Part shown: positions 1 through 26,520 of the stretch, piece by piece
How the letters are laid out: each line of letters begins with the position of its first letter
Position numbering within the stretch: position 1 is the first letter of the stretch
Assembly: GCA_964653765.1 (NCBI GenBank)
Contig: CAZZGQ010000002.1
Span: 1-56,667 of the forward strand
Source: an uncultured Elusimicrobia bacterium
Lineage (GTDB): Bacteria > Elusimicrobiota > Elusimicrobia > UBA1565 > UBA9628
DNA length: 56,667 nucleotides
Reading direction: 5' to 3'
The notes under the pieces: generated by a model
What the model was told of the DNA's origin: nothing
The model's database searches: none
The model's input: the letters and a program-made list of their open reading frames with translations, nothing else
Made by a program: the position numbers and the translations under genes

Positions 1-2
1 TG

Positions 3-938
3 GTGCGGGTGCCGATCCCGGGCGGCTGCTCGATCGGCTTGCGGCCGATCGACATCCACCTCAAGGGCTTCGCGGCGATGGGCGCGCGCCAGATCGCCGA
101 CCGCGGCGACATCATCCTCTCGGCCGCGCCGCAGCTCAAGGCGGGCCGCGTGAAGTTCAAGTTCCCGAGCGTGGGCGCCACCGAGCACCTCATGATGGCC
201 GCCGCCGCCTCGCCGGGCCGGACCGTGATCGAGAACGCGGCCCGCGAGCCGGAGATCGAGGACCTGGCGGAGTTCCTCAAGAAGCTCGGCGCCAAGGTGC
301 ACGGCGCCGGCACGCCGCGCGTCGTCGTCGAGGGGCAGCGCGCGCTCAAGGGCGCCCGGCACTCCGTCATGCCCGACCGCATCGAGGCCGGCACGTTCCT
401 GATCGCCTGCGCGGCGACGGGCGGCAAGCTGCGCCTCGAGGGCGCGCGGGCCAGGGACCTGACGGCCGTCATCGCCGCGCTGCGCAAAGCGGGGGCGAAG
501 ATCTCCGAGAGCGGCGGCGGGCTGACCGTGGAGATGAGCGGCCGGGCCAAGAGCGTTTCCATCAAGACGCAGCCGCATCCCGGCTTCCCGACGGACCTGC
601 AGGCCCCCTGGATGGCGCTCATGACGGTGGCGGGCGGCGCCAGCATCATCGCCGAGACCGTCTTCGAGAACCGCTTCATGCACGCCGCGGAGCTGGCGCG
701 CATGGGCGCCTCGATCGGCGTGGCGGGCGGCGAGGCCGCGATCGCCGGCGTGCCGAAGCTGACCGGCGCTCCCGTCATGGCGTCCGACCTGCGCGCCGGA
801 GCGGCGCTGCTGATCGCCGCGCTGACGGCGCAGGGTCAGACCACGATCCAGCGCGTCTACCACATCGACCGCGGCTACGAGCGCCTGGAGCGCAAGCTCG
901 TCCGCGCCGGCGCGCGCATCCGCCGCGTCAATAAATGA
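3..938 (+). CDS. murA: UDP-N-acetylglucosamine 1-carboxyvinyltransferase (5'-truncated by window edge)
   Basis: PGGCSIGLRPID.H (Cys115 loop), SVGATE, AAREPE, DRIEAGT, PGFPTDLQ, ETVFENRF, DLRAGA, HIDRGYE motifs. Confidence 0.97.
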   Translation: MRVPIPGGCSIGLRPIDIHLKGFAAMGARQIADRGDIILSAAPQLKAGRVKFKFPSVGATEHLMMAAAASPGRTVIENAAREPEIEDLAEFLKKLGAKVHGAGTPRVVVEGQRALKGARHSVMPDRIEAGTFLIACAATGGKLRLEGARARDLTAVIAALRKAGAKISESGGGLTVEMSGRAKSVSIKTQPHPGFPTDLQAPWMALMTVAGGASIIAETVFENRFMHAAELARMGASIGVAGGEAAIAGVPKLTGAPVMASDLRAGAALLIAALTAQGQTTIQRVYHIDRGYERLERKLVRAGARIRRVNK

Positions 939-2206
939 CCTACAAGCAGGCGCTGGCCGCCCTCGACGCGCGGCAGGAGACGCGCATCGAGCTGGGCCTG
1001 GACCGCGTCCGCGAGCGGCTGGAGCGGCTCGGGCATCCTGAGCGGCGGCTGCGCTGCTTCCACGTGGCGGGGACCAACGGGAAAGGCTCGACGTGCGCCA
1101 TCTTGGAGTCGGCGCTGCGGGCGGCGGGGCACAGGACGGGGTTTTATTCGTCGCCGCATCTGAGCGACGTGAGGGAAAGGATCAAGATCGCGGGGCGGCC
1201 CGTGGGGAAGGACGCGTTTGCCAAGGCGATCGGCAGGGTTTTAAAGGCTGATCCTGAAAAACGGCTGACGTATTTCGAATTGCTCACCATCGCGGCTTTC
1301 GTGATATTTTCCGCCGAGTCCTGCGACGCTGTGGTCCTAGAAACAGGACTCGGCGGAAGGCTCGATGCAACAAACGTAGTCGAGCGGCCGGCCGCCTCGA
1401 TCATCACCTCCATCGACTTCGACCACATGGCTTTTCTGGGGAACACGCTGGGAAAGATCGCCGCCGAGAAGGCCGGCATCGCCAAGAAAGGCGTGCCGTT
1501 GATCTGCCCGGCGCTGCCGCCGGAGGCGATGCGCGTGATCGAGCGCGCCGCCGAGGCCGCGGGAGCGAGGCTGATCGTGCTGCGCAAGGGCTGGAGCGCC
1601 GAGCGCGTGGATTGGAAGCGCCGGCTGCAGCGGCTGCGACGGCCGGACGGCCGCCGCTTCGAGCTCTCGCTGCTGGGCGACAAGCAGGGCGTCAACGCGG
1701 CTCTGGCCTGGGAGGCGCTGAGCGCGGGCTTGCCGGTGTCGGACGCCGCCCTGGCCCGGGGCCTCAAGCGCGTCGCCTGGCCGGGGCGCTTCGACGTGCG
1801 GCGGCTGGGCCCGAAGACGGCGATCCTCGACGGCGCGCATAACCCGGAGGCGGCCTCCAGCCTGGCCCGGACGTGGCGCGCCTCTCCGTGGGCGGCGCGC
1901 CCGGCGCGCTGGATCGTCGGGGTGCTGCGCGACAAGGACGCGAAGGCCGTCCTCAAGCCGCTGGCTGCGGCGCTCTCCGAGGTCGTCGTCGTCGAGCCGC
2001 CCAGCCCCCGCGCCCTGGCCGCCGCCGAGCTCGCCAAGCTCGTGCGCGCGCGCGCCCCGCGAGCGCGAGTCACCGTGGAGCCCGATGCCGAGACGGCGCT
2101 GCGCCGCTGGCGGCGCGAGGCGGCCGCGCCCAAGACCGCGGTCGTCTGCGGCTCGTTCTATCTGGTGGGCCAGGCGGCCCGCATCTTCGGAGGCAAGGGC
2201 AGATGA
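935..2206 (+). CDS. folC: Bifunctional folylpolyglutamate/dihydrofolate synthase
   Basis: HVAGTNGKGST P-loop, SPHL, ETGLGGRLDATN, EKAGI, WPGRF, LDGAHNP, CGSFYL; ATGA overlap with murA stop. Confidence 0.96.
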   Translation: MTYKQALAALDARQETRIELGLDRVRERLERLGHPERRLRCFHVAGTNGKGSTCAILESALRAAGHRTGFYSSPHLSDVRERIKIAGRPVGKDAFAKAIGRVLKADPEKRLTYFELLTIAAFVIFSAESCDAVVLETGLGGRLDATNVVERPAASIITSIDFDHMAFLGNTLGKIAAEKAGIAKKGVPLICPALPPEAMRVIERAAEAAGARLIVLRKGWSAERVDWKRRLQRLRRPDGRRFELSLLGDKQGVNAALAWEALSAGLPVSDAALARGLKRVAWPGRFDVRRLGPKTAILDGAHNPEAASSLARTWRASPWAARPARWIVGVLRDKDAKAVLKPLAAALSEVVVVEPPSPRALAAAELAKLVRARAPRARVTVEPDAETALRRWRREAAAPKTAVVCGSFYLVGQAARIFGGKGR

Positions 2207-3153
2207 TCACCGCGGCCGTCGGCGTCGACGTCGGGGGGACGTTCACCAAGATCGCCGCCGTCGATCGCAAGGGGAAGATCCGCCTGCAGGCGAGCCTGCC
2301 CTCGCAGCCGGCCGCCGGTCCCGCGGCCTTCGTGGACCGAGTCTGCGGCGTCATCGAGGCCTGGATCAAGAAAGAGGGCCTCAAGCCGCTCGGCGTCGGC
2401 CTCGGCTTGGCCGGCGACGTCGATTCCATCCGCGGCGAGCTGCGCCTGGCGCCCAACCTCCCCGGCTGGGGCGGCTTCCCGTTCAAACGCGCTCTGCAAG
2501 GGCGCCTCAAGACCTCGGTCGTGGTCGACAACGACGCCAACGCGGCGATCTGGGGCGGCTACTGCGTGGAGCTCAAGCGCAAGCCGCGCGACGTGGTGGG
2601 CATCACGCTCGGCACGGGCGTGGGCGGCGGATTGGTGGTCGACGGCAAGCTGTACCGCGGCGCGACGGGCTCGGCGGGCGAGATCGGCCACATGAAGGTG
2701 TCCCCCGGCGGCGAGTCCTGCCACTGCGGCGGCAAGGGCTGCCTGGAGGCCTACGGCGGCAGCTACGGCATCCTGCGCCTGGCGCGCCGCATGATCTCCG
2801 AAGACCCGCGCCGCGCGGCCCGCCTTCTCGAGATCTGCGGCGGCCCGAAGACCCTCGAGCCCAGGCACCTCTCGCAGGCGGCCGACGCCGGCGATCCCGT
2901 GGCGCAGGAGGTCTGGCTGCGCACGGGGCGCATGCTCGGGATCGGGCTGGAAAACCTGATCCTGGTGCTCAATCCCGACGTCGTGCTGATCCTCGGCGGG
3001 ATCTCTCGCGCCGGCCGGTGGCTGCTCGACCCGATCGAGGCCCACCTCGCCGGCTCGCCTTTCCGCACGCCCTTCGCCAAGGCGCGCGTGAAGATGGCCG
3101 ACGATCCGAACGTAGGCTGCGTGGGAGCGGCCTTGCTGGCGCTCGAGCCTTGA
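2203..3153 (+). CDS. ROK family sugar kinase (glucokinase-like)
   Basis: GVDVGGT, DNDANAA, GTGVGGG, GEIGH, Zn motif CHCGGKGCLE; start set at the ATGA overlap at 2203 (the ORF-track extension from 1873 overlaps folC). Confidence 0.93.
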   Translation: MITAAVGVDVGGTFTKIAAVDRKGKIRLQASLPSQPAAGPAAFVDRVCGVIEAWIKKEGLKPLGVGLGLAGDVDSIRGELRLAPNLPGWGGFPFKRALQGRLKTSVVVDNDANAAIWGGYCVELKRKPRDVVGITLGTGVGGGLVVDGKLYRGATGSAGEIGHMKVSPGGESCHCGGKGCLEAYGGSYGILRLARRMISEDPRRAARLLEICGGPKTLEPRHLSQAADAGDPVAQEVWLRTGRMLGIGLENLILVLNPDVVLILGGISRAGRWLLDPIEAHLAGSPFRTPFAKARVKMADDPNVGCVGAALLALEP

Positions 3154-5342
3154 TCCTCGTCTCCCTGGCGCTGGTCGCGGCCTCCTTGGCGTCCGCCCAG
3201 GACTATTCCCTTCCGCCGGCGCCCGTGGCCGTCTCCACGTCGACGACGCTGCTGCGCTACTCCGCCGACCACCTGGACTACGAGGCTTCCACCTCCAGCT
3301 TGCACTTGAAGGGCCACGTGGTCGTCCTGGACTCGACCCGCACCGTCACGAGCGACGAGCTTTGGGGCAACACGCGCACGCGCATGTTTCATTTCAAAGG
3401 GCACGTCCTGGTCGTCGACTCCACGCGCACCATCAAAGGCGACGAGTTCTGGGTGGACACGGTGGGCCGCTCCGGCCGCTCGGACGGGTATCTCTATGTC
3501 GAGGACAAGGTGGGCGCGGTCGCCAGCGAGCGCGGCGGCGACTTCGACTTCGACTCGGGCGACGGCCACCTTTATAAGACGGCGGCGGGGCACGGCTACT
3601 GGCGCGTCCACGCCCGCGAGGCCCAGATGAGCGGGCGCAAGAAGCTGGACTACCTGGGCGCCGACTTCACGAGCTGCGACGTTGTCCCGCCGCACTATCA
3701 CTTCCACGCCAGCAAGCTGAGGGTGCGCCCCGGAAAGAGCATGGTCGGCCGGAACGTGGTCTTCTACCTGGGACCGGTGCCGCTGTTCTACACGCCCTTC
3801 ATCTACAAGTCCTTATCCGGCGAGTCCAAGGTCCGCGTCAAGGCGCAGTTCGGCTACGATAGCCGCAACGGCGCTTTCGCGAAGACGACGCTGTACACGA
3901 CGATCAACCCCTTTCTCTACGACAAGGCGTACCTGGACTACTACTCGAAGGAGGGCGTGGGCCTGGGCAACGAGCTGGAGCATCGCAAAGGCGACAGCCG
4001 CAGCGTCGTCACCGGCTATCAGATCCACGAGTCCTCCGGCGTCGAGCGCTGGACGGCGGCCGTCAACGCCTACGAGACGTTCGGCAGCGCCGTCTCCGCC
4101 TTCCAAGTCCGCGTCCAGGGCCAGTCCGACGCGGACTTCAACAACCACTACGCCCGAAGCAGCACGTTCCGCGTCACGCCGGAGCTCATCAACGACGCCG
4201 CCTGGATCTACCGCAAGCCCAAGTACAACCTCCGCGTCAGCTACGCGCGGCACGACCTGCTGCAGCAGGACCTGTTCCACTACTTCAAGAACAGCGAAGA
4301 CACGCGCGTCGACGTCAATTCGGCGCAGTTCAACGTGGGCAAGCTGCCGTGGCTCAACAGCGTCAGCGGGTTCGCGAACAACAACTACACGCTGGGGCGG
4401 ACTTACTTGCAGCGCACGGCCGGCGGAAGCTGGGACGCGACCCGGACGATCAAGCTGTCGCGGAGCTTGGCCCTCGTGCCGCGGGTGGACTTCAGCGAGA
4501 CCTGGTACGACCAGACGGACGTCGCCATCGATCTCGCGCAGACGCGGCACGTCTATGACGCGACGATCGGCCGCTATACCGTGGGGGGGACGCTCCGGTG
4601 GTACACGCTGCTCGGGGCCTGGGACCTGGGGTACGGCTACACGAAGCGCCTCAAGGCGGACTCGTTCACGGATGACGCGGTGGCGGCGGACCACGGCGTC
4701 GAGCAGAACCTGCTCTCCTTGACGGACGCCTTCCGTCCTTCCCGCCAGATCCTGCTGCGGGCCTCCTCCGCCTACGACTTCCGCGTCTTCCGCGATCACA
4801 TGGTCGGGTTCCGCGACCGCGTCCAGCCCATCATCGGCGAGGCCATCTACACGCCGCGCCACACGTTCAACGTGACGGTGCGCAACGTCTACGGCCTGAC
4901 GTCGGGCGAGCAGAGCTTCATCGCGTCCCTGCTGCACGGCGACGAGCAGAAGTCCTTTTACTCGATCGGCGTGGGCTATAACGGCGGCAGCACCGGCACC
5001 TATTCCGCGGACACCGAGTTCGCCGTCGCCAACGCCTCGGGGACGTGGCGCCTGATCGCGGCGCTGCGCTCCCAGCTGGGCACGACCGGCGGACTGGGAG
5101 GCTTCTCGACGCGGCAGATCGTCCTCTTCGAGAAAGAGGTGTCGATCGTCAAAGCCTGGCACGACTTCAACACGCGCGCGATGGTCCGCTTCCGCCCCGG
5201 CGACGTGCGCGAGTACACCGTCCGCGTCGAGCTGCGCTTCGGCCCGCCCGGCCAGCCAAAGACGACGGTGCCGGTGGGTAGGCGCGACTGGGAGTCGGAG
5301 TGGTTCCCGGAGCGGACGTCCGGGCTCCATGACCGGCCTTAG
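3150..5342 (+). CDS. lptD: LPS-assembly outer-membrane protein LptD
   Basis: TTG start overlapping ROK stop; signal peptide (LILVSLALVAASLASAQ); beta-jellyroll N-domain with FTSCD..PPHYHF and PLFYTPF; long aromatic beta-strand C-domain (barrel). Confidence 0.85.
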   Translation: MILVSLALVAASLASAQDYSLPPAPVAVSTSTTLLRYSADHLDYEASTSSLHLKGHVVVLDSTRTVTSDELWGNTRTRMFHFKGHVLVVDSTRTIKGDEFWVDTVGRSGRSDGYLYVEDKVGAVASERGGDFDFDSGDGHLYKTAAGHGYWRVHAREAQMSGRKKLDYLGADFTSCDVVPPHYHFHASKLRVRPGKSMVGRNVVFYLGPVPLFYTPFIYKSLSGESKVRVKAQFGYDSRNGAFAKTTLYTTINPFLYDKAYLDYYSKEGVGLGNELEHRKGDSRSVVTGYQIHESSGVERWTAAVNAYETFGSAVSAFQVRVQGQSDADFNNHYARSSTFRVTPELINDAAWIYRKPKYNLRVSYARHDLLQQDLFHYFKNSEDTRVDVNSAQFNVGKLPWLNSVSGFANNNYTLGRTYLQRTAGGSWDATRTIKLSRSLALVPRVDFSETWYDQTDVAIDLAQTRHVYDATIGRYTVGGTLRWYTLLGAWDLGYGYTKRLKADSFTDDAVAADHGVEQNLLSLTDAFRPSRQILLRASSAYDFRVFRDHMVGFRDRVQPIIGEAIYTPRHTFNVTVRNVYGLTSGEQSFIASLLHGDEQKSFYSIGVGYNGGSTGTYSADTEFAVANASGTWRLIAALRSQLGTTGGLGGFSTRQIVLFEKEVSIVKAWHDFNTRAMVRFRPGDVREYTVRVELRFGPPGQPKTTVPVGRRDWESEWFPERTSGLHDRP

Positions 5343-5345
5343 AGC

Positions 5346-6599
5346 TTAGCGGGCTTCCGCGGGCAGGTCGGCGGTCCGTATGCCGAAGAGCGGCCAGCAG
5401 AGCAGGGCCAGGACGCCTTGCGCTCCAGCCATGGCCAACGCCGCGCCGGCGGCGCCCAGCCGGGGGATGAGGAGAAGGTCGAGGATCAAGTTGAAAGCGA
5501 TCGCGCCTACCGCCGCGGCCGCCGCCGCAGCGGAGCGCTTCGCGCCGATCAGGGCGTTGAGGGAAAAGTGGTTGATGAACATGAAAGGAAGCGCCAGCGA
5601 GAGCCAGATCAGGTATTTAGCCGTGCTGGCGTAGGCCGGGCCGTAGATCAAGCGCGTCCCCAGGCGCGCTCCTAAGGCGCAGGCCGTGGCCGCGAGACAG
5701 CCGCCGAGGAAAAGCTCCAGGCGCAGCCGGCTGGCGGTCTGGCGCACGGTGCCCTTCTGCAGGCCGGAAAAGACCGGCAGCGACGCGATCGCGAAGAGGC
5801 CGGGCAGCATCCCGATGCCGGCGATGACGCGCTCGGCGGCGAAGTAACGGCCCGTCTCGTCCGCCCCGACGCCAAACCACTTGAGGCAGGCGATGTCGAC
5901 GCGCGAGAAGCCGGCCAGCGCCAAGTTGATCAAGGCGAGGGCGGCCACCTCGCCCATCTCGGCGGACGGCCAGCGAGGCAGGGGCCACGATGCCGGGCGA
6001 GGCAGCGCGGTCACTTGGCGCGCGATCAATATCAGGCCGATAAGCGCGGCGAGCGCGTGCGCGAGCAAAAGCGCTAAGACCGCGGCGCCAACGGTCGGGC
6101 GAAGAGACAGCGCGGCCAAGCCGAGCCCCAACGTGAAGCAGCCGAGGACGAGCTTCATCCAGGACTCGACCTTCAGCTTTTCGTAGGCGAGGCAAAAATA
6201 GCTGAGCTGGTCGACGAGGTTGCGGCCCGCCGCTAACGCCAGGAAGAGAAGAACGATGCCCCGCTCGCTGGCAAAGGCCGGCCAGAGCGAGACTCCGGCC
6301 AGGAACAACGCGAACAGGACGACCTTGGCGTAGGTGATCTGGAGGAAGAGTGGCGCGCCCTTCGATTTGTCGCCGGCGACGTCTCGGGTCAGGAGGACGT
6401 TGAGGCCGCAGTCGCCGAGCGAAGCCAGGAACATCGCCGCGGCGTATCCGACGGAGAACCGCCCGAAGCTCGCCGCGCCCAGCCGGCGAGCGAGGAGGAT
6501 GAAGTAGACGATCTGGAATCCGCGGGAGGCCTCGGCGGCCGCCTTCCAGAGAAAATTGAGCCCGATGCGCCGTCGCGTCCCGCTCGCGGAGAGGGTCAT
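5346..6599 (-). CDS. wzx: Wzx/MOP-family polysaccharide flippase
   Basis: About 12 hydrophobic segments; LARRLG...FG, D.GL...L.RDVA, RVDI..L, G.Y.AA.R, L.P.LG..GAA.A; ATG at 6599 coupled to the upstream GT2 stop. Confidence 0.85.
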   Translation of the reverse strand: MTLSASGTRRRIGLNFLWKAAAEASRGFQIVYFILLARRLGAASFGRFSVGYAAAMFLASLGDCGLNVLLTRDVAGDKSKGAPLFLQITYAKVVLFALFLAGVSLWPAFASERGIVLLFLALAAGRNLVDQLSYFCLAYEKLKVESWMKLVLGCFTLGLGLAALSLRPTVGAAVLALLLAHALAALIGLILIARQVTALPRPASWPLPRWPSAEMGEVAALALINLALAGFSRVDIACLKWFGVGADETGRYFAAERVIAGIGMLPGLFAIASLPVFSGLQKGTVRQTASRLRLELFLGGCLAATACALGARLGTRLIYGPAYASTAKYLIWLSLALPFMFINHFSLNALIGAKRSAAAAAAAVGAIAFNLILDLLLIPRLGAAGAALAMAGAQGVLALLCWPLFGIRTADLPAEAR

Positions 6600-7493: not shown

Positions 7494-7553
7494 TGTTAGA
7501 ATTGTCATTGCTACTTGACTATTAAATAAGCATCGAGATAATAACTCGAGGAG
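7494..7553 (+). promoter_or_regulatory. Sigma70-type promoter(s) and RBS for the main + strand cluster
   Basis: TTGACT (7515-7520)-N16-GATAAT (7537-7542); upstream extended -10 TGTTAGAAT (7494-7502); GAGGAG at 7548-7553, 6 nt before ATG 7560; AT-rich divergent gap. Confidence 0.7.
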
Positions 7554-7559
7554 AATCCA

Positions 7560-8435
7560 ATGACGCGTAAAATCGTCCGTTTCGGCAACCGCATCATCGC
7601 GCAGGGTAACGAGCCTTATATCATCGCTGAGATCGGGATTAATCACAACGGGTCGTTGGATACGGCCAAGAAGCTCATCGACGCGGCCAAGTCGGCGGGC
7701 TGCGACGCGGTCAAGTTCCAAAAACGCACGGTCGACATCGTGTACACGAAGGAAGAGCTGGCCAAGCCGCGGGAAAACCCTTTCGGGCCCACCAACGGCG
7801 ACCTCAAGCGCGGACTCGAGTTCGGCAAGAAGGAGTATGGAGAGATCGATCGTTACTGCAAGGAGCTGAAGATCGACTGGTTCGCTTCCTGTTGGGATGA
7901 GGGCTCCGTCGATTTCATGGAGGAGTTCGACCCCGTCTGCTACAAGATCGCCTCGGCCAGCCTGACCGACGACAACCTGCTGCGCCATCACCGAAAGACC
8001 GGCAGGCCCATCATTCTTTCGACGGGCATGAGCACCGATGCGCAGATCAAGCATGCAGTGGAGGTCTTGGGCCTCGATGATTTGGTGCTCATGCACGCGA
8101 CCAGCACCTATCCCTCCAAGCCGGAGGAATTGAATCTGGCCTGCATCGCGAAGTATATGGAGCGTTATCCTGTTCCGATCGGATACTCGGGGCATGAGGT
8201 CGGCCTGGCCACGACCTTCGCTGCCGCGGTGCTCGGCGCCTGCGTCATCGAGCGTCACATCACCCTGGACCGTTCCATGTGGGGCAGCGATCAGTCCGCC
8301 TCGGTGGAGCCCCAAGGGTTCGCTCGCCTAGTCCGCGATATTCGCGAGCACCGCGTGGCCTTGGGCGACGGCGTCAAGACGGTCTACCCAAGCGAGAAGC
8401 CCATCATCGAGAAGCTGCGCCGCGTGGGGAAGTGA
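7560..8435 (+). CDS. neuB: N-acetylneuraminate synthase family (NeuB/SpsE), short form without C-terminal AFP/SAF domain
   Basis: IIAEIGINHNG, DAVKFQ, YKIASASL, ILSTGM, HATSTYP, GYSGHE, IERHITLDR.MWGSDQ.AS; 291 aa. Confidence 0.93.
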   Translation: MTRKIVRFGNRIIAQGNEPYIIAEIGINHNGSLDTAKKLIDAAKSAGCDAVKFQKRTVDIVYTKEELAKPRENPFGPTNGDLKRGLEFGKKEYGEIDRYCKELKIDWFASCWDEGSVDFMEEFDPVCYKIASASLTDDNLLRHHRKTGRPIILSTGMSTDAQIKHAVEVLGLDDLVLMHATSTYPSKPEELNLACIAKYMERYPVPIGYSGHEVGLATTFAAAVLGACVIERHITLDRSMWGSDQSASVEPQGFARLVRDIREHRVALGDGVKTVYPSEKPIIEKLRRVGK

Positions 8436-8737
8436 CCTACTGCTTCGACATCGACGGCACTCTGTGCACCAATACGGAAGGTGCTTACGAGGATGCGGCC
8501 GGTTTCCCGGACGTCATAGAGCGCGTTAACGCGCTCTATGACGCCGGGCACCGCATCATTCTCTGCACGGCCCGGGGCTCCAAGACCGGCATCGATTGGC
8601 GCAAGGTGACGGAGCAGCAGATGCAGCGCTGGGGCGTTAGGTATCATGAACTGTGGTTCGGCAAGCCGACGGCCGACGTCTACGTCGACGACAAGGCCGT
8701 CAATATCAAGGATTGGATGATCAAGGAGCCGCGATGA
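8432..8737 (+). CDS. Minimal capless HAD-family phosphatase
   Basis: GTGA overlap; FDIDGT (motif I), CTARG (II), GKP (III), VYVDD (IV); 101 aa. Confidence 0.82.
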   Translation: MTYCFDIDGTLCTNTEGAYEDAAGFPDVIERVNALYDAGHRIILCTARGSKTGIDWRKVTEQQMQRWGVRYHELWFGKPTADVYVDDKAVNIKDWMIKEPR

Positions 8738-9720
8738 CACCGCATAGAGGACGCGTCGTCTATCTCAACGGTGAGTATGTGCCCGAGGCCTCGGCGCGCA
8801 TCTCGATCTACGACTCGGCGTTGATGTTCGGCGACATGGTCTTCGAGATGACCCGTTCCTTCAGCAAGAAGCAGTTCAAGCTGCGCGAGCACTTGGAGCG
8901 CCTCTACGCCTCCGTCCGCTTCGTGAACATCCCGCTCAAGATGCCGATCGAGAAGATGGAGAAGCTCTGCCAAGAGGTCATCGAGCGCAACGACCCTCTC
9001 TTCGAGAGCACCGACGAGCATCGCTTGATGATCAACGTCAGCCGCGGGCCCTTGTCCATCTACGCTCCCATCTTCGGCGGCAAGATGGAGCCGACGGTCG
9101 TCATCGCCGACTTTCCGCTCAAGTGGACGGTGGCTTCGATGGGGCCGCTCTTCGACACCGGCATCAACGCTGTCATCCCTTCCCAGCGCGCCATCCCGGC
9201 GACGCTGCTCGATCCCAAGGTCAAGAGCCGCAGTCGCCTCCATTACATGATGGCCAACATCGAGGTCTCGCAGGTCAAGGGCGACAACAACTGGGCGCTG
9301 CTCCTCGATCCTGAGGGTTTCATCGCCGAGGGCACCGGCGACAACATCTTCATCGTCAAGGATGGCGTCGTCATCACGCCCGAGCCGCGCAATATCCTGC
9401 GCGGCATCAGCCGGGCGTACATCTTCGAGCTCTGCGAGCAGCTCAAGCTCAAGTGTGTCGAGCGCAACATCGAGCCGTACGACATGCTCATGGCCGACGA
9501 GTCGTTCATGACCGGCACTCCGTTCTGTCTGCTGCCCGTCACGGCCCTTAACGGCACGGCGTTGGGTGACGGCAAAATGGGACCGATCACGCGCCGGCTG
9601 CTCGAGCGCTGGAGCAAGAACGTCGGGGTCGACGTCGAAAAGCAGATCAAGGATTGGGGCCGGGAGATCAGCTCGGCGGCCGCCGGGGCGCCCAGCCCTT
9701 ATCAATTCCGGCGCGGGTGA
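8734..9720 (+). CDS. PLP fold-type IV aminotransferase (BCAT/D-amino acid aminotransferase/PabC family)
   Basis: VYLNGEYV, FGD.VFE, HLERL..S, DPKVKS (Schiff-base Lys), EGTGDNIF, LRGISR, ESFMTGT. Confidence 0.9.
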   Translation: MTPHRGRVVYLNGEYVPEASARISIYDSALMFGDMVFEMTRSFSKKQFKLREHLERLYASVRFVNIPLKMPIEKMEKLCQEVIERNDPLFESTDEHRLMINVSRGPLSIYAPIFGGKMEPTVVIADFPLKWTVASMGPLFDTGINAVIPSQRAIPATLLDPKVKSRSRLHYMMANIEVSQVKGDNNWALLLDPEGFIAEGTGDNIFIVKDGVVITPEPRNILRGISRAYIFELCEQLKLKCVERNIEPYDMLMADESFMTGTPFCLLPVTALNGTALGDGKMGPITRRLLERWSKNVGVDVEKQIKDWGREISSAAAGAPSPYQFRRG

Positions 9721-10544
9721 CGACGAACCCGATCGGCATCATGCAGGGGCGTCTTTCGCCTCCTGCGCATGGACGGATACAGGCCTTCCCCGCGGATTCT
9801 TGGAAGCGCGAGCTCGAGTTGGCCGGCGACCTCGGACTGGCCCATATCGAGTGGGTCTATGACGTCGAGAGCGCCGACTCGTCGCCGCTGCTGACCGATC
9901 CGGGCGCGGTTCGCGAGGTCGTCCGCCGCACCGGCGTCAAGATCGCTGCCGTCTGCGGCGATTATTTCCGCGACTGTCCCGTGATTCGCGTCGATGCGCG
10001 GGGCTTGCGTGAGCGGGTTGAGCGCGTGGCGCGCCTATGCGCCGCCTGTCGTGAACTCGAAATCCCGGCTGTCATGATTCCCTTCGTCGATTTCTCGGCG
10101 ATCCAGGGCGAGGCCGAGCTTCCCGCTGTCGCCGCCGCTCTCAGGGAATGCCTGCGCCCGGCGCGTGAAGCGGGGATCAAAATCCTGCTGGAGACGAACC
10201 TCCAGCCCGCCCTTTACCGCAGACTTCTCGAGGACGTCGGCGATCCCGGGCTCGGCGTCAACTATGACATGGGCGACTGCGCTTCGCTAGGGCATGAGCC
10301 TGCCGCCGAACTCGGGCTTCTGGGTCCTTGGCTTCGCGGTGTCCATGTAAAGGACAGGCCGCTCGGCGGCTCGACGGTCCCGCTCGGTAGCGGCGCTGTC
10401 GACTTCCCAACGGTCTTTCGGGCATTGGACAAAGCGGGCTTCGCCGGGCCGATCACCCTTCAGACAGCACGCGCTGGCGACGAGCTCGAGCTGGCGCGCC
10501 GCAACCGCAGCTTCGTGCGGTCTCTTCTATGCCCAAGCGCGTGA
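9717..10544 (+). CDS. Xylose-isomerase-like TIM barrel (sugar phosphate isomerase/epimerase, AP-endonuclease-2 family)
   Basis: GTGA overlap; IGIMQGRLSP, LLET, NYD.GD, HVKD, G.G.VDF. Confidence 0.82.
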   Translation: MTTNPIGIMQGRLSPPAHGRIQAFPADSWKRELELAGDLGLAHIEWVYDVESADSSPLLTDPGAVREVVRRTGVKIAAVCGDYFRDCPVIRVDARGLRERVERVARLCAACRELEIPAVMIPFVDFSAIQGEAELPAVAAALRECLRPAREAGIKILLETNLQPALYRRLLEDVGDPGLGVNYDMGDCASLGHEPAAELGLLGPWLRGVHVKDRPLGGSTVPLGSGAVDFPTVFRALDKAGFAGPITLQTARAGDELELARRNRSFVRSLLCPSA

Positions 10545-11356
10545 CGCCGGCGGCTTTTTCGCTCAAGGGCCGGGTGGCTGTTGTGACGGGCGGCGCGGGC
10601 TTTTTGGGGCAACAGCATGCCCGGGCTCTGCATGCTCATGGCGCGGAGGTGGCGCTCGTCGACATCGATGAGGCCGCCGCCAAGAAGGCGGCGCGCCGCG
10701 TTGGTCGTCGCGCGGCGGGCTTCGCAGTCGACGTGACCTCGCCCGATTCGGTGCGTGCTCTGGAGCGGCGCGTGCGCGCCGCTCTCGGCGAGGTTGATAT
10801 CCTCCTCAATAACGCGGCGATTGACCCGAAGATCAAGGCGGGAGGCGAGGGTGTCGAGTTCTCCCGACTCGAGAACTTTCCGCTGGAGCAGTGGAACCGC
10901 GAGATTGCTGTCGGCTTGACGGGAGCTCTTCTGTGCAGCCAGGTCTTCGGCACGCGCATGGCGCAGCGAGGACGCGGAGTCATCCTCAACATCGCCTCGG
11001 ACCTGTCCGTGATCGCGCCTGATCAGCGTCTCTATCGCAAGTCCGGTTTGCCGAAGCACCGCCAGCCCGTCAAGCCCGTCACGTATTCTGCGATCAAGGC
11101 GGGGTTGGTCGGCCTCACTCGATACTTGGCGACTTATTGGGCCGAGGACGGAGTTCGAGTCAATGCGCTGTCACCTGGAGGGATGCGCAAGGATCAGCCC
11201 GAGGAGTTCGTGGCGAGGCTGTCATCGCTCATCCCAGCCGGCCGCATGGCCGAGCTCGACGAATACGGAGGAGCGGTCGTCTTTCTCGTCAGCGACGCTT
11301 CGTCTTACATGACCGGCCAAAACGTCGTGATTGACGGCGGCCGAAGCATCTGGTAG
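10529..11356 (+). CDS. SDR family oxidoreductase
   Basis: TGGAGFLG, NNAA, YSAIK, VRVNALSPGG, TGQNVVIDGG. Confidence 0.93.
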   Translation: MPKRVTPAAFSLKGRVAVVTGGAGFLGQQHARALHAHGAEVALVDIDEAAAKKAARRVGRRAAGFAVDVTSPDSVRALERRVRAALGEVDILLNNAAIDPKIKAGGEGVEFSRLENFPLEQWNREIAVGLTGALLCSQVFGTRMAQRGRGVILNIASDLSVIAPDQRLYRKSGLPKHRQPVKPVTYSAIKAGLVGLTRYLATYWAEDGVRVNALSPGGMRKDQPEEFVARLSSLIPAGRMAELDEYGGAVVFLVSDASSYMTGQNVVIDGGRSIW

Positions 11357-11364
11357 GGGGTACT

Positions 11365-12096
11365 ATGGCTAAACGGGTCGTCGGTATCATTCAGGCGCGC
11401 ATGGGATCGTCGCGGCTCCCGGGGAAATCGATGGAGCTGCTGGCCGGCAAGCCGTTGGTTTGGCAATTCCTCGAGCGAGTGAAGCGATCCAAGCGGCTCG
11501 ACGAGATCGTGCTGGCCACGACCACCAAGGCGCAGGACGACGTTCTAGAGCAGTTGGCGCGCGGCTGCGAGGTCAGCGTCTTCCGAGGTAGCGAGAACGA
11601 TCTAGTCGACCGCTATTTCCAGGCGGCGAAACGGTTCAAAGCCGACACGGTGGTGCGCTTGTGCGCCGACAATCCGGTCGTCGAGTCCGAAGAAGTCGAC
11701 CGGATCATCGAGTACTTCCCTATCTCCGGCGTGGATTTCGCGGCTAATACTCATAACATCCTCGACAACCAGTATCCCGACGGCCTGGGCGCCGAGATCT
11801 TCAGCTTCGAGAGCTTGGAGGAAATCTGGCGGGAGTCCACCGACCCTCGGCGCAGGGAGCACCCGCACACGAACTTCTACGAGCAGCCCGAGAAGTACAC
11901 GATCGGCACCGTGCCTTGCCCCGCCGGCTTCCGCAGGCCCGAGCTCAAGCTCGACGTCAATCTGCCCGAGGAGCTGGCTTTCCTGCAGACGATCTACGAT
12001 TACTGCTATCCGCGCAACGAGCGCTTCCATATCACGGATATTATTCGGTGGCACGATACAGTCTATAAGAAGGAGCCGCTAAGAGCGTCGAAATAG
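11365..12096 (+). CDS. Acylneuraminate-type cytidylyltransferase, SpsF/PseF-like
   Basis: IIQARMGSSRLPGKS, FRGSENDLVDRY, VRLCADNP, REH, LDV..PE.L. Confidence 0.9.
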   Translation: MAKRVVGIIQARMGSSRLPGKSMELLAGKPLVWQFLERVKRSKRLDEIVLATTTKAQDDVLEQLARGCEVSVFRGSENDLVDRYFQAAKRFKADTVVRLCADNPVVESEEVDRIIEYFPISGVDFAANTHNILDNQYPDGLGAEIFSFESLEEIWRESTDPRRREHPHTNFYEQPEKYTIGTVPCPAGFRRPELKLDVNLPEELAFLQTIYDYCYPRNERFHITDIIRWHDTVYKKEPLRASK

Positions 12097-12101
12097 TCGC
12101 C

Positions 12102-12893
12102 ATGAGCTTTACGTTAGAACGAATCAGGGATTTTTGGACGGACCAGGCGAAGACACATGGGCAATCGTATGCCGCTTCGTGGTCAGATCGCTACGCTATT
12201 GAGTTGGAGATCGAGACGCTGCTCAATTACGTAGCGCCAGGCGACCGTATGCTCGATATCGGATGCGCGAACGGTTTTTCAACGCTCCGAATTGTGAGTC
12301 AACGAGCTGTGTCAGTCGACGCGATAGACTATATTCCGGACATGGTTGAACAAGCCACGCGGCGCGCTGCTGATCTCGACGGACAACTTCAAGGATCGGT
12401 TCGATTTTCCGTCGGCGATGCAACTGCCCTTGAGCAAGAATCGGAATCCTACGACAAGGTCATGGCGATTCGAGTCGTCATAAACCTGCGTTCGTGGGAC
12501 AACCAAAAGAAAGCTCTACAAGAAGCGTCGCGAGTCCTAAAACGAGGCGGATTGCTTCTGCTATCAGAGGCGACTCTTCAGGGCTGGACCAAGCTCAACT
12601 CACTGCGGGCTACGTTTGGCCTTGCGCCTATCCCGATGCCTGCCTTCAATGAGTATCTAGATCAAGACCGAGTCGTCGATGCGCTCCGTGGGTCGATGGA
12701 TCTCGTCATGATCCGGAATTTCTCTAGCACTTACTTTCTGGGGACGCGCGTGCTTAAACCACTTGTATTTCCGATTGTCGGGCTTGCTGCTGAGATACCG
12801 AATCCGCAAACAGCATGGAACCGGTGGTTCTCGCGCTTGCCGGCCTTGGGGACATTCGGCACCCAAAAACTATTCGTTTTTCGAAAGAAGTAA
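12102..12893 (+). CDS. Class I SAM-dependent methyltransferase
   Basis: LDIGCANG, GDAT.L, RVLKRGG. Confidence 0.88.
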   Translation: MSFTLERIRDFWTDQAKTHGQSYAASWSDRYAIELEIETLLNYVAPGDRMLDIGCANGFSTLRIVSQRAVSVDAIDYIPDMVEQATRRAADLDGQLQGSVRFSVGDATALEQESESYDKVMAIRVVINLRSWDNQKKALQEASRVLKRGGLLLLSEATLQGWTKLNSLRATFGLAPIPMPAFNEYLDQDRVVDALRGSMDLVMIRNFSSTYFLGTRVLKPLVFPIVGLAAEIPNPQTAWNRWFSRLPALGTFGTQKLFVFRKK

Positions 12894-17873: not shown

Positions 17874-18938
17874 GTGAAGCGGCCATTAAGAGTCGGCATT
17901 GCCGGGTATGGCGTCATTGGCCAGCGCCGAAGGCAAGTCATCGACGCGCATCCCGCCCTTAAGCTAGTCGCCATTGGCGATAAGACTTTTAAACGGCGAG
18001 AGCGGTTGGGAAACGGCCCTCGACAGTATCACGACTGCAGGGATCTTGTTGCTGCCGAACAGCTAGACGTTTTGTTCGTTTGTCTCCCAAATTATCTCGC
18101 AGCGCCGATGACCCTGGCCGGCCTGAAACGTGGTTTTCATGTGTTCTGCGAGAAGCCGCCAGGCCGCACGCTTGCTGAGATAGACGCCGTGTATGAATAC
18201 ACCAAGCGCAGGCCAGACCTGAAATTGAAGTATGGCTTCAATCATCGATATCATGACTCGGTCCGCGACGCGTTAGAGATTCTGGCCAAAGGAGAACTCG
18301 GCCGCGTTATTAGTCTGCGAGGCGTCTATGGCAAAAGCAAGATCATCCCTTTTGCCGATGCGTGGCGGGGAAAGCGGAAATATGCCGGAGGAGGCATCCT
18401 TCTTGACCAGGGCATTCATATGGTCGACCTCATCCGTCTGTTCGCGGGGGAATTCGTCGACGTTCACAGTTTCATTTCAAACGATTTCTGGCGGCATGAC
18501 GTGGAGGATAACGCCTATGCGTTGATGCGCACGAGAACGGGCGTGGTGGCCATGGTTCATTCTTCTGCGACGTCTTGGCGCCATCGTTTCCATCTTGACG
18601 TGACGCTGGAGCGCGGCGCCTTGATCCTTTCTGGCATTCTTTCGGGCTCACGTAGTTACGGCGCTGAGACACTTACGGTGGTCTATGCCGGTCAGGATGA
18701 TTCCGGCGACCCTAAAGAGCAAACGACTCGCTACAATCAGGATCATTCTTGGCGCGATGAGATCGATGAATTCGTCGAGGCCATTCTTCAGAATAAACCC
18801 GTTTCAAACGGCTCTTGCGAGGATGCCGTCAAGACGATGGAGCTCATTTACCGTATTTACTGCGCGGATTCCGTTTGGCGGAGCGCCTACAAGTTGCGGG
18901 GCCGGTTGTCGGGCGATCTTGCCGGAGCCGCGCGGTGA
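17874..18938 (+). CDS. Gfo/Idh/MocA family oxidoreductase
   Basis: GIAGYGVIG, HVFCEKP, GFNHRY, GGGILLDQGIH.VD. Confidence 0.92.
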   Translation: MKRPLRVGIAGYGVIGQRRRQVIDAHPALKLVAIGDKTFKRRERLGNGPRQYHDCRDLVAAEQLDVLFVCLPNYLAAPMTLAGLKRGFHVFCEKPPGRTLAEIDAVYEYTKRRPDLKLKYGFNHRYHDSVRDALEILAKGELGRVISLRGVYGKSKIIPFADAWRGKRKYAGGGILLDQGIHMVDLIRLFAGEFVDVHSFISNDFWRHDVEDNAYALMRTRTGVVAMVHSSATSWRHRFHLDVTLERGALILSGILSGSRSYGAETLTVVYAGQDDSGDPKEQTTRYNQDHSWRDEIDEFVEAILQNKPVSNGSCEDAVKTMELIYRIYCADSVWRSAYKLRGRLSGDLAGAAR

Positions 18939-19654
18939 AACGACCGCTCTCCGGTAAACGTGCGCTTGTCACCGGTGGCACTCGTGGCATTGGCGCGGCG
19001 ATCGTGCGGCGGCTGTGTCAAGATGGCGCGAGCGTCACGGTGACTGGCACCCGATTGAACGGCGAAAAACCGAAGGGCTGTGCCTATTTTGCCGTCGATT
19101 TCGCCGATCGCCCGGCGACGGAGGATTTCGCGCGACAAATGGCGCGGCGAGGTTTCGACATATTGATCAACAATGCCGGCATAAACAAGATTTCCCGATT
19201 TCAAGATATCGATCCTAGAGATTATGATCGGATCCAAGAAGTCAACGCGCGCGCTCCCTTTTTGCTTTGCACGGCTCTAGTTCCTGGAATGACGGCCCGT
19301 CGGTGGGGGCGCATCGTCAACCTGACCTCTATTTTTGGCGTCGTGAGCAAGGAATGTCGCGGAGCGTATTCCGCCAGCAAATTCGCTCTCGATGGGATGA
19401 CGGCAAGCCTCGCTGCGGAAGTGGTCCCTTACGGCGTTCTGGCAAACTGCGTCGCTCCTGGGTTTATCGATACCGAACTGACACGCTCAGTCCTTGGGAA
19501 AGCAGGCATGAAGGAAATGGCTCGGGCCATACCCGCCAAGCGCTTGGGCCGCCCGGAGGAGATCGCGGCGCTCGTGGCCTGGCTCTGCGGACCAGAGAAT
19601 ACTTACATTAGCGGCCAGAATCTCGTCATCGACGGTGGTTTTAGTCGTGTCTGA
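18935..19654 (+). CDS. SDR family oxidoreductase (FabG-like)
   Basis: GTGA overlap; TGGTRGIG, NNAG, YSASK, NCVAPGFIDT, SGQNLVIDGG. Confidence 0.92.
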   Translation: MKRPLSGKRALVTGGTRGIGAAIVRRLCQDGASVTVTGTRLNGEKPKGCAYFAVDFADRPATEDFARQMARRGFDILINNAGINKISRFQDIDPRDYDRIQEVNARAPFLLCTALVPGMTARRWGRIVNLTSIFGVVSKECRGAYSASKFALDGMTASLAAEVVPYGVLANCVAPGFIDTELTRSVLGKAGMKEMARAIPAKRLGRPEEIAALVAWLCGPENTYISGQNLVIDGGFSRV

Positions 19655-20800: not shown

Positions 20801-22615
20801 ATGTTCCTTGCGACCACCGCATTGAGCGAGTTCTGGGATACGCGCTCCAGTATTCTGTTCCTTGGATCCTGGTGCTGCCTGCACAGCCGGATCCGGCAGC
20901 TCAAGACGATAGAGCACGCCGTCTTGCCTTATCCGTTAGACGATAAAGCCGTCTTCGATGAGGCTGTCGAGTTCTGCGACGTCTTTTATGACAGGTCCTT
21001 ATCCATTCTAGCGAGGACGCTGAACGGCCTGCACGGGACCTCTCTCAGCGAACAGTATTGGCGCATCCTTCTTGGCCCGTGGCTTACCCATTACATCCAC
21101 GCTCTCTATGACCGCTACCTTTGCGTCCAGGCCGCGCGAGAGAGCTATGGCGTCCTCGAAACCATCGGGCTGGACGAGTCGTCGTATTTCGTGCCTCGAG
21201 ATGCCGACGATCTGCTCAGGTCCATCCATACGGACTCCTATAACCTGCAGCTTCTCACCGCGACGTGCGAGTTTATGGGTGTCCGAATCAACTCGAGAAA
21301 AGCCCTAGATGTGCGGTCCGAAACCATCGTGCTTTCTCATTGGCGCGCGCGGCTCAAGCTTCGAGCGAGAAGAGTGTTTGCGGGATGCCTCGCGCGCCTG
21401 CTTCCTCAGTCCGTTTTCCTTCGTGACGGCCAAATCTGGTATTTTTCCTCTTACCTTCCGCTTAGCGCTCGGTTCCGCCTCCTGCTGCAGACTCGCGGTA
21501 GGGCGGTGTTCGTTCCGTATCACCGTAATGGCCCGAAGTTCGGCGCGCCGAAGATGGACCGCGATCTGCGCGCAGGGCTGGCTCGCGCATTCGGCGAAGG
21601 CGAATTCGAGCGCCTCTTCGCCTCAACGCTCGCCGCGAATTTCCCATGGCTGTACCTCGAGGGCTATGCTCGTTATCTGGCGCAGTTGAAGCCGATGTTG
21701 AGCCTCTCGCCGCGGGCGCTCGTTGCCTCCACCAATACCGTGCCCTTCCAATTCATCGCGGCTCAGCTCAAAGAGAAGGCCGGGTCCAAGCTCATCAGCG
21801 TCCAACATGGCGGCTCCTTCGGAACGGTCAAGCATAGTCCGACGGAGAAGCACGATCAGATAGTCGCGGATGAATATTGGAGCTGGGGCTGGTCAGACGG
21901 TTTGGGCGGACGCGCCAGACCGGTTCCCGGCTTCTTGCTCGGTTCTAGTCGACGACGGGGTGCCAGACGCCGCATGACGGGTCCTATTCTCTATAGTGGC
22001 AATGATATGCCGCGATACGCCTATCGTCTCTGGAGTAATCCGATCGGACCGCAATGGGAAGAGTTCATCCAATGGCAGCACCGCTGGCTCAGGGCGCTTG
22101 GAGCCGAGGCGCGTTCGGAGCTCTTTATTAGACTCTATCCCCACGACCATTACCTTTGGGAGCAAAAGCAACGGCTGCTAGAGTCATTCCCTGATTTGAG
22201 GCATGATGACGGTATAGTGCCATTCGAAGAAGCACTTGACCGCTGCAAGCTGTTCGTAGCTGACAACAACCACACCACGTTATTGCAGGCTCTGTCGGCG
22301 GACAAGCCGACGGTTTTGTTTTGGGAGCCGCGCTTCAATGGGCTTCGCCCGTCTGCCGAGCCCTACTTCGCCCGATTGCGAGAAACAGGCGTATTGCACT
22401 ATTCTCCCGAAGATGCCGCACGCAAGGTCAATGAGGTCCGCTCTCAACCGATGGACTGGTGGCGGCAGCCCGATGTGAGGCGAGCTGTAGCTTCGTTCAG
22501 GAGGCAGTTTGCCCATACCGAAGCCGATACCACAGCGGCCTGGGGCGACTCCTTTCTTCGGCTGCTCCGCAACTCTGTAAACCCAGCCGATCCGTCCTTG
22601 CTTTCTCGTCGATAG
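20801..22615 (+). CDS. Putative glycan transferase, resembles LIC12162 family (GT-B-like C-terminus)
   Basis: MFLATTAL.E.W...ILFLG.WC N-terminus, W.ILLGPWL, QHGG, WGW, RLYP, N.TT.LQAL....PT. Confidence 0.72.
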   Translation: MFLATTALSEFWDTRSSILFLGSWCCLHSRIRQLKTIEHAVLPYPLDDKAVFDEAVEFCDVFYDRSLSILARTLNGLHGTSLSEQYWRILLGPWLTHYIHALYDRYLCVQAARESYGVLETIGLDESSYFVPRDADDLLRSIHTDSYNLQLLTATCEFMGVRINSRKALDVRSETIVLSHWRARLKLRARRVFAGCLARLLPQSVFLRDGQIWYFSSYLPLSARFRLLLQTRGRAVFVPYHRNGPKFGAPKMDRDLRAGLARAFGEGEFERLFASTLAANFPWLYLEGYARYLAQLKPMLSLSPRALVASTNTVPFQFIAAQLKEKAGSKLISVQHGGSFGTVKHSPTEKHDQIVADEYWSWGWSDGLGGRARPVPGFLLGSSRRRGARRRMTGPILYSGNDMPRYAYRLWSNPIGPQWEEFIQWQHRWLRALGAEARSELFIRLYPHDHYLWEQKQRLLESFPDLRHDDGIVPFEEALDRCKLFVADNNHTTLLQALSADKPTVLFWEPRFNGLRPSAEPYFARLRETGVLHYSPEDAARKVNEVRSQPMDWWRQPDVRRAVASFRRQFAHTEADTTAAWGDSFLRLLRNSVNPADPSLLSRR

Positions 22616-26512: not shown

Positions 26513-26520
26513 GTCTTCGC

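Follow-up and report, generated by a model that had tools for sequence, protein, structure and literature searches.

The window, that is, the whole 56,667-nucleotide stretch of DNA analysed here, is contig C2 (CAZZGQ010000002.1) of the genome of an uncultured Elusimicrobia bacterium (assembly GCA_964653765.1; 4.04 Mb in 626 contigs, 87.7% complete), and it carries a neuB operon in which one gene codes for a fold-type IV pyridoxal 5'-phosphate (PLP) aminotransferase that we call AT4. The AT4 gene (8734..9720, on the forward strand like the other genes of the operon) is an open frame of 328 amino acids from an ATG at 8734 to a TGA at 9720, with the sequence AAGGAG 7 nucleotides 5' of the ATG. 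The order of the operon is NeuB, small HAD phosphatase, AT4, TIM barrel, short-chain dehydrogenase/reductase (SDR) and cytidine monophosphate (CMP)-transferase, so that NeuB lies two genes 5' of AT4. The ATG of AT4 overlaps the TGA of the preceding HAD gene by four bases (ATGA, 8734-8737), and its TGA overlaps the GTG start of the following TIM-barrel gene by four bases (GTGA, 9717-9720), a start that is credible because the TIM homologues begin at equivalent residues. The NeuB stop overlaps the HAD start as well (GTGA at 8432-8435), the SDR gene overlaps the TIM gene by 16 bases, and the cytidylyltransferase gene starts 8 bases after the SDR gene. Our results confirm the initial annotation in its description of AT4 as a fold-type IV PLP enzyme with an intact catalytic lysine (K164) that is coupled on both sides within the neuB operon.

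The first gene of the operon (7560..8435) codes for a NeuB-family ulosonate synthase of 291 amino acids with PF03102 as its sole domain (256 bits), without a C-terminal SAF domain, and under the NeuB and PseI equivalog cut-offs (248 < 400 and 209 < 340). The HAD gene (8432..8737) codes for a minimal phosphatase of 101 amino acids with the motifs DIDGT, TARG and GKP..DD; its matches to HAD_PNKP and to TIGR01689, the model of the EcbF/BcbF capsule phosphatases, are weak. On the other side of AT4, the xylose-isomerase-like TIM barrel (AP_endonuc_2, 9717..10544; PF01261, 94 bits) resembles ketose or ketose-phosphate 3-epimerases, its closest solved structure being the L-ribulose-5-phosphate 3-epimerase UlaE (3cqh, E 2e-8). 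It is followed by a classical SDR oxidoreductase (10529..11356; adh_short_C2, 166 bits), the proposed source of the carbonyl for AT4, and by a CTP_transf_3 cytidylyltransferase of the CMP-ulosonate synthetase type (11365..12096; PF02348, 104 bits), which is KdsB/PseF-like and under the cut-offs. A promoter-like site on the same strand (TTGACT-16-GATAAT, 7515..7542; 10 of 12 consensus matches) in the 113-bp gap 5' of neuB is a possible start of the operon; only a match to the consensus supports it, and such sites are no more numerous in the region than the shuffled expectation. A GmhA-like SIS isomerase and a KdsC-like HAD are absent from the window and present elsewhere in the genome.

AT4 matches a single Pfam family, Aminotran_4 (PF01063; 166.2 bits, cut-off 28.5; positions 2-222 of the 223 in the profile), and the Pfam search gave no match to PF01041 (DegT/DnrJ/EryC1). 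Its AlphaFold (AF2) model has the two-domain fold-type IV architecture (predicted local distance difference test score, pLDDT, 84; predicted template-modelling score, pTM, 0.85), and a Foldseek search with this model returned the archaeal branched-chain aminotransferases (BCATs) 5mqz, 5e25 and 5cm0 (34% identity) as the best matches, followed by (R)-amine transaminases. All of the best 50 matches were fold-type IV transaminases, with target-normalised TM-scores of about 0.73-0.86, and a sequence search of the PDB agreed with this ranking. AT4 stays under the cut-off of all 19 NCBIfam models that it matched, among them those for IlvE (TIGR01122, 184 < 245.55; NF005146, 163 < 279; NF009126, 181 < 518; PRK08320, 210 < 363), for D-amino-acid aminotransferase (DAAT; TIGR01121, 119 < 277; PRK06680, 143 < 320) and for PabC (73-114 bits, with cut-offs of 177-308). 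A second Aminotran_4 gene of the genome, located on contig C381, passes the ilvE_I model TIGR01122 (306 > 245.55) and PRK08320 (425 > 363), and its product is 32% identical to AT4. Judged by these models, AT4 is not the housekeeping IlvE, and the genome has a separate, true IlvE on C381. The initial annotation had regarded AT4 as a dedicated enzyme of the neuB operon and had noted that normal IlvE activity and the lack of any other ilvE in the genome would speak for a housekeeping role; with the IlvE cut-offs failed and an IlvE present on C381, the dedicated role is supported.

The active site was compared in an alignment of 70 family members with Escherichia coli IlvE, the own-genome IlvE and the Geoglobus BCAT and in a second alignment of 42 sequences, with E. 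coli IlvE as the numbering ruler, its sequence checked at K159, Y95, R97, F36, G38, R40, E193, T257 and A258, which fall at the expected indices. The Schiff-base lysine K164 (BCAT K159), the glutamate to the pyridine N1, E199 (BCAT E193), and the phosphate-binding arginine R56 (BCAT R59) are invariant in both alignments. F37-E38, R41 (BCAT R40), R97 and T262 (BCAT T257) are also kept and are invariant in the 70-sequence alignment. The same alignment shows a set of equally invariant substitutions, in which BCAT G38 has become M39, Y31 has become F32, Y95-I96 has become E95-H96 (motif DEHR), Y164 has become R168 with R166 in addition (K-S-R-S-R), and A258-A259 of the carboxylate-binding turn has become P263-F264 (GTAA to GTPF). 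From the BCAT pocket set F36-E-G38-x-R40, Y95-x-R97, Y164 and G-T257-A-A, the family keeps only F36, E37, R40, R97 and T257. The family motifs are FEMTR (37-41), DEHR (94-97), K-x-K164-S-R-S-R168 and T262-P-F, and there is an added conserved C-terminal tail that ends in PYxF. The invariant catalytic residues together with the invariant pocket changes indicate that the cofactor chemistry is intact and that both substrate pockets have been remodelled in a single, fixed manner. An amino-acid co-substrate such as glutamate would fit the retained R41 and R97, and the two new arginines, R166 and R168, suggest an anionic partner.

AT4 is a member of a very widespread and uncharacterised branch of the BCAT fold. 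A search of 5.8 billion proteins gave 6458 matches, the best 120 of which were all 70-92% identical to AT4, and a search with exact peptide patterns identified relatives in the genomes of at least 302 species. From these 302 genome matches, the best 80 supplied the loci studied below; they share 62-75% identity with AT4 and belong to 71 bacteria and 7 archaea. They represent 22 named phyla, with Nitrosopumilus, Methanoregula, Nanoarchaeota, Patescibacteria, Leptospira perolatii, Coxiellaceae and Omnitrophota among them. Taking all relatives of 62-92% identity together, at least 22 named phyla of Bacteria and Archaea are represented. A tree of 148 class IV proteins places the sequences with the FEM and KxRSR motifs in a clade of 59 (Shimodaira-Hasegawa-like approximate likelihood ratio test, SH-aLRT, 99), outside which the E. 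coli, Geoglobus and own-genome BCATs fall. The high-identity AT4 core is a subclade of 17 (SH-aLRT 99) with very short branches across domains, which indicates horizontal transfer. Relatives without the motifs (P0168 type) are not in a sugar context, and the sugar-linked clade is therefore limited to the FEM/KxRSR branch. Searches for AT4 found only host ilvE-like matches of <30% identity in GenBank phages and none in the PLSDB plasmids. CMP-C10 ulosonic acids have been reported in Magnetospirillum gryphiswaldense, and a homologue search from a Rhodospirillaceae member of the family gave no named Magnetospirillum protein and no link to these sugars.

Gene neighbourhoods were counted within 6 kb of AT4 at the 51 cellular loci with flanks of 5 kb or more on either side of the gene, by tblastn with the window neighbours and with neighbour clusters. 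A CTP_transf_3 cytidylyltransferase was present at every locus and NeuB, or a fusion of NeuB with SAF and TIM, at 49 of the 51, so that the co-occurrence with neuB that the initial annotation had proposed as a check on its reading extends across genomes. A module-type SDR was found at 36 loci (detection by tblastn can catch unrelated SDRs) and a radical S-adenosylmethionine (SAM)/SPASM protein of about 270 amino acids with a CxxxCxxC motif at 12, and the two were never found together (0/51). The TIM barrel was present at 33 loci, 32 of them with the SDR. A phosphatase was found at 25 loci, with homologues of the small HAD at the same position in 9 and a HAD resembling KdsC and ketodeoxynononic acid (Kdn)-9-phosphate phosphatase in 16, the best model for the latter being Kdn-9-phosphate phosphatase, under its cut-off (88 < 180 bits). 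A GmhA-like SIS isomerase was found at 22 loci.

At three of the 51 loci, no SDR or radical-SAM gene lies within 6 kb. Two of them (L036 and L077) have an iron-type alcohol dehydrogenase (Fe-ADH) inside the operon, adjoining NeuB and AT4, and the third, which we take to be L037 from the gene-order listing, has its radical-SAM gene further along. The candidate dehydrogenases of the 51 loci are thus 36 SDRs, 13 radical-SAM proteins and 2 Fe-ADHs, and each complete locus gives AT4 one candidate dehydrogenase from three unrelated families. The co-occurrence of AT4 with NeuB, the CMP-transferase and one dehydrogenase is obligate. When the IMG/VR loci are included, the 122 loci comprise 68 with an SDR only, 39 with a radical-SAM protein only, 1 with both and 14 with none, many of the last being truncated. 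On the AT4 tree of these 122 loci, the type of dehydrogenase changes at least 10 times, and no column of the AT4 alignment separates the SDR loci from the radical-SAM loci; the substrate of AT4 therefore appears to be the same with either partner.

A further Fe-ADH is found at L063, again adjoining NeuB and AT4. These Fe-ADH loci (L077:5252-8972, L036:5053-8990 and L063:12-2581) are alphaproteobacterial, include two marine single-cell genomes, and have the Fe-ADH in place of the SDR and TIM barrel or of the radical-SAM protein. The Fe-ADHs gave matches to PsrA, and a role in phosphonate chemistry was considered and dropped, there being no phosphoenolpyruvate (PEP) mutase among the conserved neighbour families. 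Some loci (L078:3958-5850; also L005, L013, L015, L022, L026, L074 and L079-L081), from Flavobacteria, Leptospira perolatii and others, have a 630-amino-acid NeuB-SAF fusion 5' of the AT4 cassette. In L078, the fusion covers positions 1-327 of 329 of the NeuB_NnaB model, and its C-terminal part of about 290 amino acids has motifs that look TIM-barrel-like by eye. Fusions of this type adjoin a CBS-GHMP kinase (HddA-like), an HddC-like nucleotidyltransferase and a GmhA-like isomerase. At L090:1-9935, a distant AT4 (47-50% identity) lies with a 542-amino-acid RecA_N protein, a metallophosphatase and several small open reading frames (possibly viral), and by Pfam annotation this locus holds both an SDR and a radical-SAM/SPASM gene.

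Among the loci is L083, whose AT4 is 92% identical to the one studied here and whose small HAD is 79% identical. NeuB, HAD, AT4, SDR and the cytidylyltransferase of the two operons are 79-92% identical, the TIM barrel (10992-11837 in L083) only 40%, and L083 has an additional SDR gene between the TIM and SDR genes, which together suggest recombination or replacement within the operon.

The same cassettes were found at 43 loci in IMG/VR, one of which, L119, was checked for phage genes. This uncultured phage contig carries a four-gene cassette (L119:7055-11055) in the order NeuB, AT4, radical SAM and CTP_transf_3, with genes for a replication initiator and an HNH endonuclease to one side of it and for the terminase large subunit and portal to the other. 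Its AT4 is 38% identical to that of the window. The presence of only these four genes in a phage suggests that the cassette is a self-sufficient unit that works from common host metabolites.

Taken together, we consider it probable that AT4 aminates a carbonyl that its partner dehydrogenase has created on an ulosonic acid or on its precursor. We infer the reaction, the position on the sugar and the amino donor as follows. The SAF-less NeuB would condense PEP with a sugar phosphate, the small HAD would take off the phosphate, the SDR would turn one hydroxyl into a carbonyl, and the UlaE-like TIM barrel would epimerise or isomerise beside the new carbonyl of the keto intermediate. AT4 in its pyridoxamine phosphate (PMP) form would then aminate the carbonyl and be recharged by an amino acid donor, probably L-glutamate, and the CTP_transf_3 enzyme would yield a CMP-amino-ulosonate for transfer to a surface glycan. 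The radical-SAM protein could stand in for the SDR and TIM barrel (and for the additional SDR where there is one), since both routes may deliver the same keto intermediate. A precedent exists in 2-deoxystreptamine synthesis, with the radical-SAM dehydrogenase BtrN against the NAD-dependent NeoA, and the radical-SAM diol dehydratase AprD4 is another. As no N-acyltransferase is conserved with the module, the amine may be left unmodified, or the product of the adjoining gene, a SAM-dependent methyltransferase (12102..12893, forward strand; Methyltransf_25/31/11) directly 3' of the activating enzyme, may methylate it. The methyltransferase is not conserved with AT4 at other loci (1/80); it is a possible tailoring step, and its membership in the module is uncertain.

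The logic of this proposal is known from the synthesis of the 8-amino derivative (Kdo8N) of ketodeoxyoctonic acid (Kdo), in which a dehydrogenase oxidises one hydroxyl of an ulosonic acid, and transamination and CMP activation follow. In the KdnB/KdnA pathway to Kdo8N in Shewanella oneidensis (Gattis et al. 2013, as cited in PMC5125639), the Kdo 8-oxidase of the first step, KdnB, is a member of the Fe-ADH family (PMC5125639), the family that is used by the AT4 loci L036, L063 and L077. The synthase in our operon is of the NeuB type and not KdsA; it matches only the NeuB family, and AT4 matches only Aminotran_4. KdnA is an aminotransferase of fold-type I and KdsA a member of the DAHP-synthase family, whereas AT4 is of fold-type IV and the usual oxidant at its loci is an SDR or a radical-SAM protein. 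Judged by these family assignments, the AT4 module resembles KdnB/KdnA in logic and not in descent. The CMP-Kdn pathway of Bacteroides thetaiotaomicron (Kdn-9-phosphate synthase BT1714, phosphatase BT1713 and CMP-Kdn synthetase) shares with the module a NeuB-type synthase, a HAD phosphatase, a cytidylyltransferase and a sugar-phosphate route, and it is the Kdn-9-phosphate phosphatase that the KdsC-like HAD of related loci matches best. However, it is without a dehydrogenase or an aminotransferase, and the HAD in the window is a different, minimal one. By analogy, the module could be described as the KdnB/KdnA logic grafted onto a phosphate-route NeuB pathway like that of Bacteroides Kdn.

AT4 can also be compared with other enzymes of related fold or function. 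The DegT/DnrJ/EryC1 enzymes PseC, LegC and PglE also carry out the amination step of nonulosonic-acid and deoxy-amino-sugar pathways on a keto sugar supplied by a dehydrogenase or dehydratase, but they are of fold-type I and act on nucleoside diphosphate (NDP)-4-keto sugars before the NeuB-type condensation, and the AT4 module is without an NDP-sugar dehydratase or a hydrolysing 2-epimerase. The BCATs of archaea and thermophiles (Geoglobus acetivorans 5cm0/5e25 and Archaeoglobus fulgidus 5mqz) have the same fold, about 34-40% identity and, in common with AT4, the catalytic lysine, the PLP-binding glutamate, the phosphate-binding residues and the equivalents of R40 and R97; AT4 is set apart from them by the invariant pocket substitutions, the PYxF tail, the failed IlvE cut-offs and the ulosonate cluster context. 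The (R)-amine transaminases (Arthrobacter ATA-117, 3wwh, and Aspergillus, 4ce5) are fold-type IV enzymes that aminate ketones without an adjacent carboxylate, and the fold can therefore do the proposed chemistry. The characterised members that we know of, fungal and actinobacterial, serve as biocatalysts and are not known from work on sugar pathways. In the PDB sequence search, their scores with AT4 were about 94-111 bits, below those of the archaeal BCATs, and unlike them AT4 groups with BCAT-like sequences and keeps R97. Loss of this carboxylate-binding arginine is, along with published signature motifs (Hohne et al. 2010), a mark of the class, and its retention would speak against the membership of AT4.

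Within the proposed reading, amination after the NeuB step is a plausible though tentative placement. That AT4 acts earlier, on a keto sugar phosphate, and that NeuB then condenses the amino-sugar phosphate with PEP is a sub-case that we regard as rather unlikely. It would follow the logic of kanosamine synthesis, with the dehydrogenase NtdC, the aminotransferase NtdA and the phosphatase NtdB, and it draws on the phosphatase that is part of many modules, on the similarity of the TIM barrel to a ketose-phosphate 3-epimerase and on R166 and R168, which could bind a phosphate; the order of reactions is also not fixed by the order of the genes. On the other hand, about half of the loci are without a nearby phosphatase or SIS gene, and free 2-amino aldoses are poor NeuB substrates without N-acylation, for which no conserved acyltransferase is at hand. 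In addition, the characterised amination of an ulosonate, that of Kdo8N, takes place on the free acid after the synthase, and the Fe-ADH variant of the AT4 loci mirrors it (PMC5125639). A further idea, AT4 running in reverse to supply an aldehyde to NeuB, was dropped as it has no plausible amine precursor.

The initial annotation had offered three roles for AT4, of which the amination of an oxidised position is favoured by the dehydrogenase of one of three unrelated families at all 51 loci, and the amination of C2 and the supply of a D-amino-acid substituent are disfavoured. Its argument for C2 was that fold-type IV enzymes act on 2-keto acids, and AT4 could in this way convert an open-chain ulosonate to a polyhydroxylated alpha-amino acid instead of a CMP-sugar. 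The invariant carboxylate-binding R97 and R41 agree with this, NeuB, AT4 and the CTP_transf_3 enzyme are the constant trio, the NeuB product is the sole ketone available without oxidation, and AT4 does not covary with the type of dehydrogenase. We nevertheless find it improbable: to our knowledge, all known CTP_transf_3 members activate the C2 anomeric hydroxyl of 2-ulosonic acids, and amination at C2 would destroy the intact keto or anomeric centre that this enzyme, found at all 51 loci, needs. It would also leave the dehydrogenase of all 51 loci unexplained, and the alpha-carboxylate pocket of the BCATs is altered in AT4 (Y95E and TAA to TPF). Still more doubtful is a role other than transamination, with PMP or PLP serving a ColD/E1-like deoxygenation, a PabC-like elimination or an epimerisation. 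Fold-type IV does include the lyase PabC, whose models AT4 matches at up to 114 bits, the substrate pockets are heavily remodelled, and radical-SAM and TIM partners are compatible with deoxygenation; yet the catalytic lysine is invariant, where the fold-type I PMP dehydratases ColD and E1 have a histidine, the best sequence and structure matches are true transaminases, and R41 and R97, needed for an amino or keto acid co-substrate, are kept. The remaining explanation, that AT4 supplies a D-amino acid or an unusual amino acid for later attachment to the sugar as an N-acyl substituent, or that it is a spare branched-chain aminotransferase of the island, we regard as very improbable. AT4 does have the BCAT/DAAT fold, some nonulosonic acids carry D-alanyl groups, and relatives are labelled 'branched-chain amino acid aminotransferase' in JGI annotations. 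It is, however, under all BCAT and DAAT cut-offs, the genome has its housekeeping IlvE elsewhere, and the neighbour families that are conserved in the 80 loci include no ATP-grasp protein, ligase or acyltransferase; the 62-75% identity across two domains, the invariant motifs and the fixed context point to one specific, conserved substrate.

Several observations weigh against the amination of a dehydrogenase-derived carbonyl as we propose it. R97 and R41 bind carboxylates in BCATs, and their retention fits a 2-keto-acid acceptor as well as a glutamate donor. SDRs are common in glycan loci, and without a control set of NeuB loci that lack AT4 the SDR count alone is weak; for this reason, the dehydrogenase argument rests on the kept gene order, the mutual exclusion of SDR and radical SAM, and the substitution by Fe-ADH. 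Instead of acting as a dehydrogenase, the radical-SAM protein may catalyse epimerisation, methylation or dehydration. The loci were chosen by their similarity to AT4 and are not a random sample, and a single one of the IMG/VR contigs was checked for phage genes. Finally, a full-text search of the literature for class IV, fold IV or branched-chain aminotransferases with NeuB and ulosonic terms found no paper on the family, and the paper on nonulosonic acids in Leptospira lists aminotransferases with nothing on class IV (PMC3438082).

The AT4 gene is part of a stretch of low G+C content. Contig C2 has a G+C content of 59%, the lowest among the 249 contigs that are 5 kb or longer, with 68% for the genome; it is 69.7% in bases 1-6000, 62% in the operon and 56.5% from 12 to 52 kb. 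The low-G+C stretch looks like a large glycan island gained by horizontal transfer. A LIC12162-family protein of 604 amino acids is encoded there (20801..22615, forward strand), with 29-31% identity over its full length to a cluster of AT4 neighbours (cluster 17). The homologue in L083 carries PF27859 (LIC12162), a Pfam search of the window copy gave no match at E 0.001, and the family is near AT4 at 7 of the 51 loci; we regard it as a candidate transferase for the product. Just 5' of this gene (17874-20735) are a Gfo/Idh/MocA oxidoreductase, an SDR and a protein of the 3-dehydroquinate-synthase family, possibly a sugar-phosphate cyclase. The island has two more CTP_transf_3 genes, at 40156-40908 and 46738-47514 (166 and 134 bits), and there is no further NeuB in the window; the former is followed by a D-2-hydroxyacid dehydrogenase (40889-41872) and the latter preceded by a Gfo/Idh/MocA oxidoreductase (45611-46741). 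Positions 25379-27468 code for a class I/II aminotransferase and a D-2-hydroxyacid dehydrogenase, and 41876-43822 for a protein of 648 amino acids in which a GT2 glycosyltransferase domain is fused to a zinc-type alcohol dehydrogenase (ADH_N/Glu_dehyd_C). A second ulosonate locus of the same genome, on contig C6 (about 6.7-28.5 kb), is without AT4 and combines a NeuB that includes a SAF region with a CTPa-type cytidylyltransferase, an SDR and another LIC12162-family gene.

In conclusion, we see an even chance that AT4 founds a new class of fold-type IV aminotransferases that aminate ulosonic acids, and that it is the core, together with a SAF-less NeuB and the CMP-transferase, of a horizontally mobile and also phage-encoded cassette that recruits any of three unrelated dehydrogenases (SDR with TIM barrel, radical SAM or Fe-ADH) and whose product, a CMP-amino-ulosonic acid, is displayed by members of more than 20 phyla of Bacteria and Archaea. 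All characterised sugar aminotransferases that we know of use the fold-type I scaffold, and a fold-type IV enzyme that aminates sugars would, if true, be an independent invention of sugar amination. The interchangeable dehydrogenases would then be a natural experiment on nonhomologous enzyme swaps around a fixed core. Mass-spectrometric surveys report CMP-linked ulosonic acids without assigned genes (bioRxiv 10.64898/2026.04.20.719630); the four-to-eight-gene AT4 cassette is a candidate source of these, and the sugar that it makes may belong to the omega-amino or higher-carbon ulosonic acids detected there. Since the family is not rare, with thousands of metagenome sequences, at least 302 species genomes, 22 phyla and at least one phage contig, its product is probably a common and as yet unnamed component of microbial surfaces.

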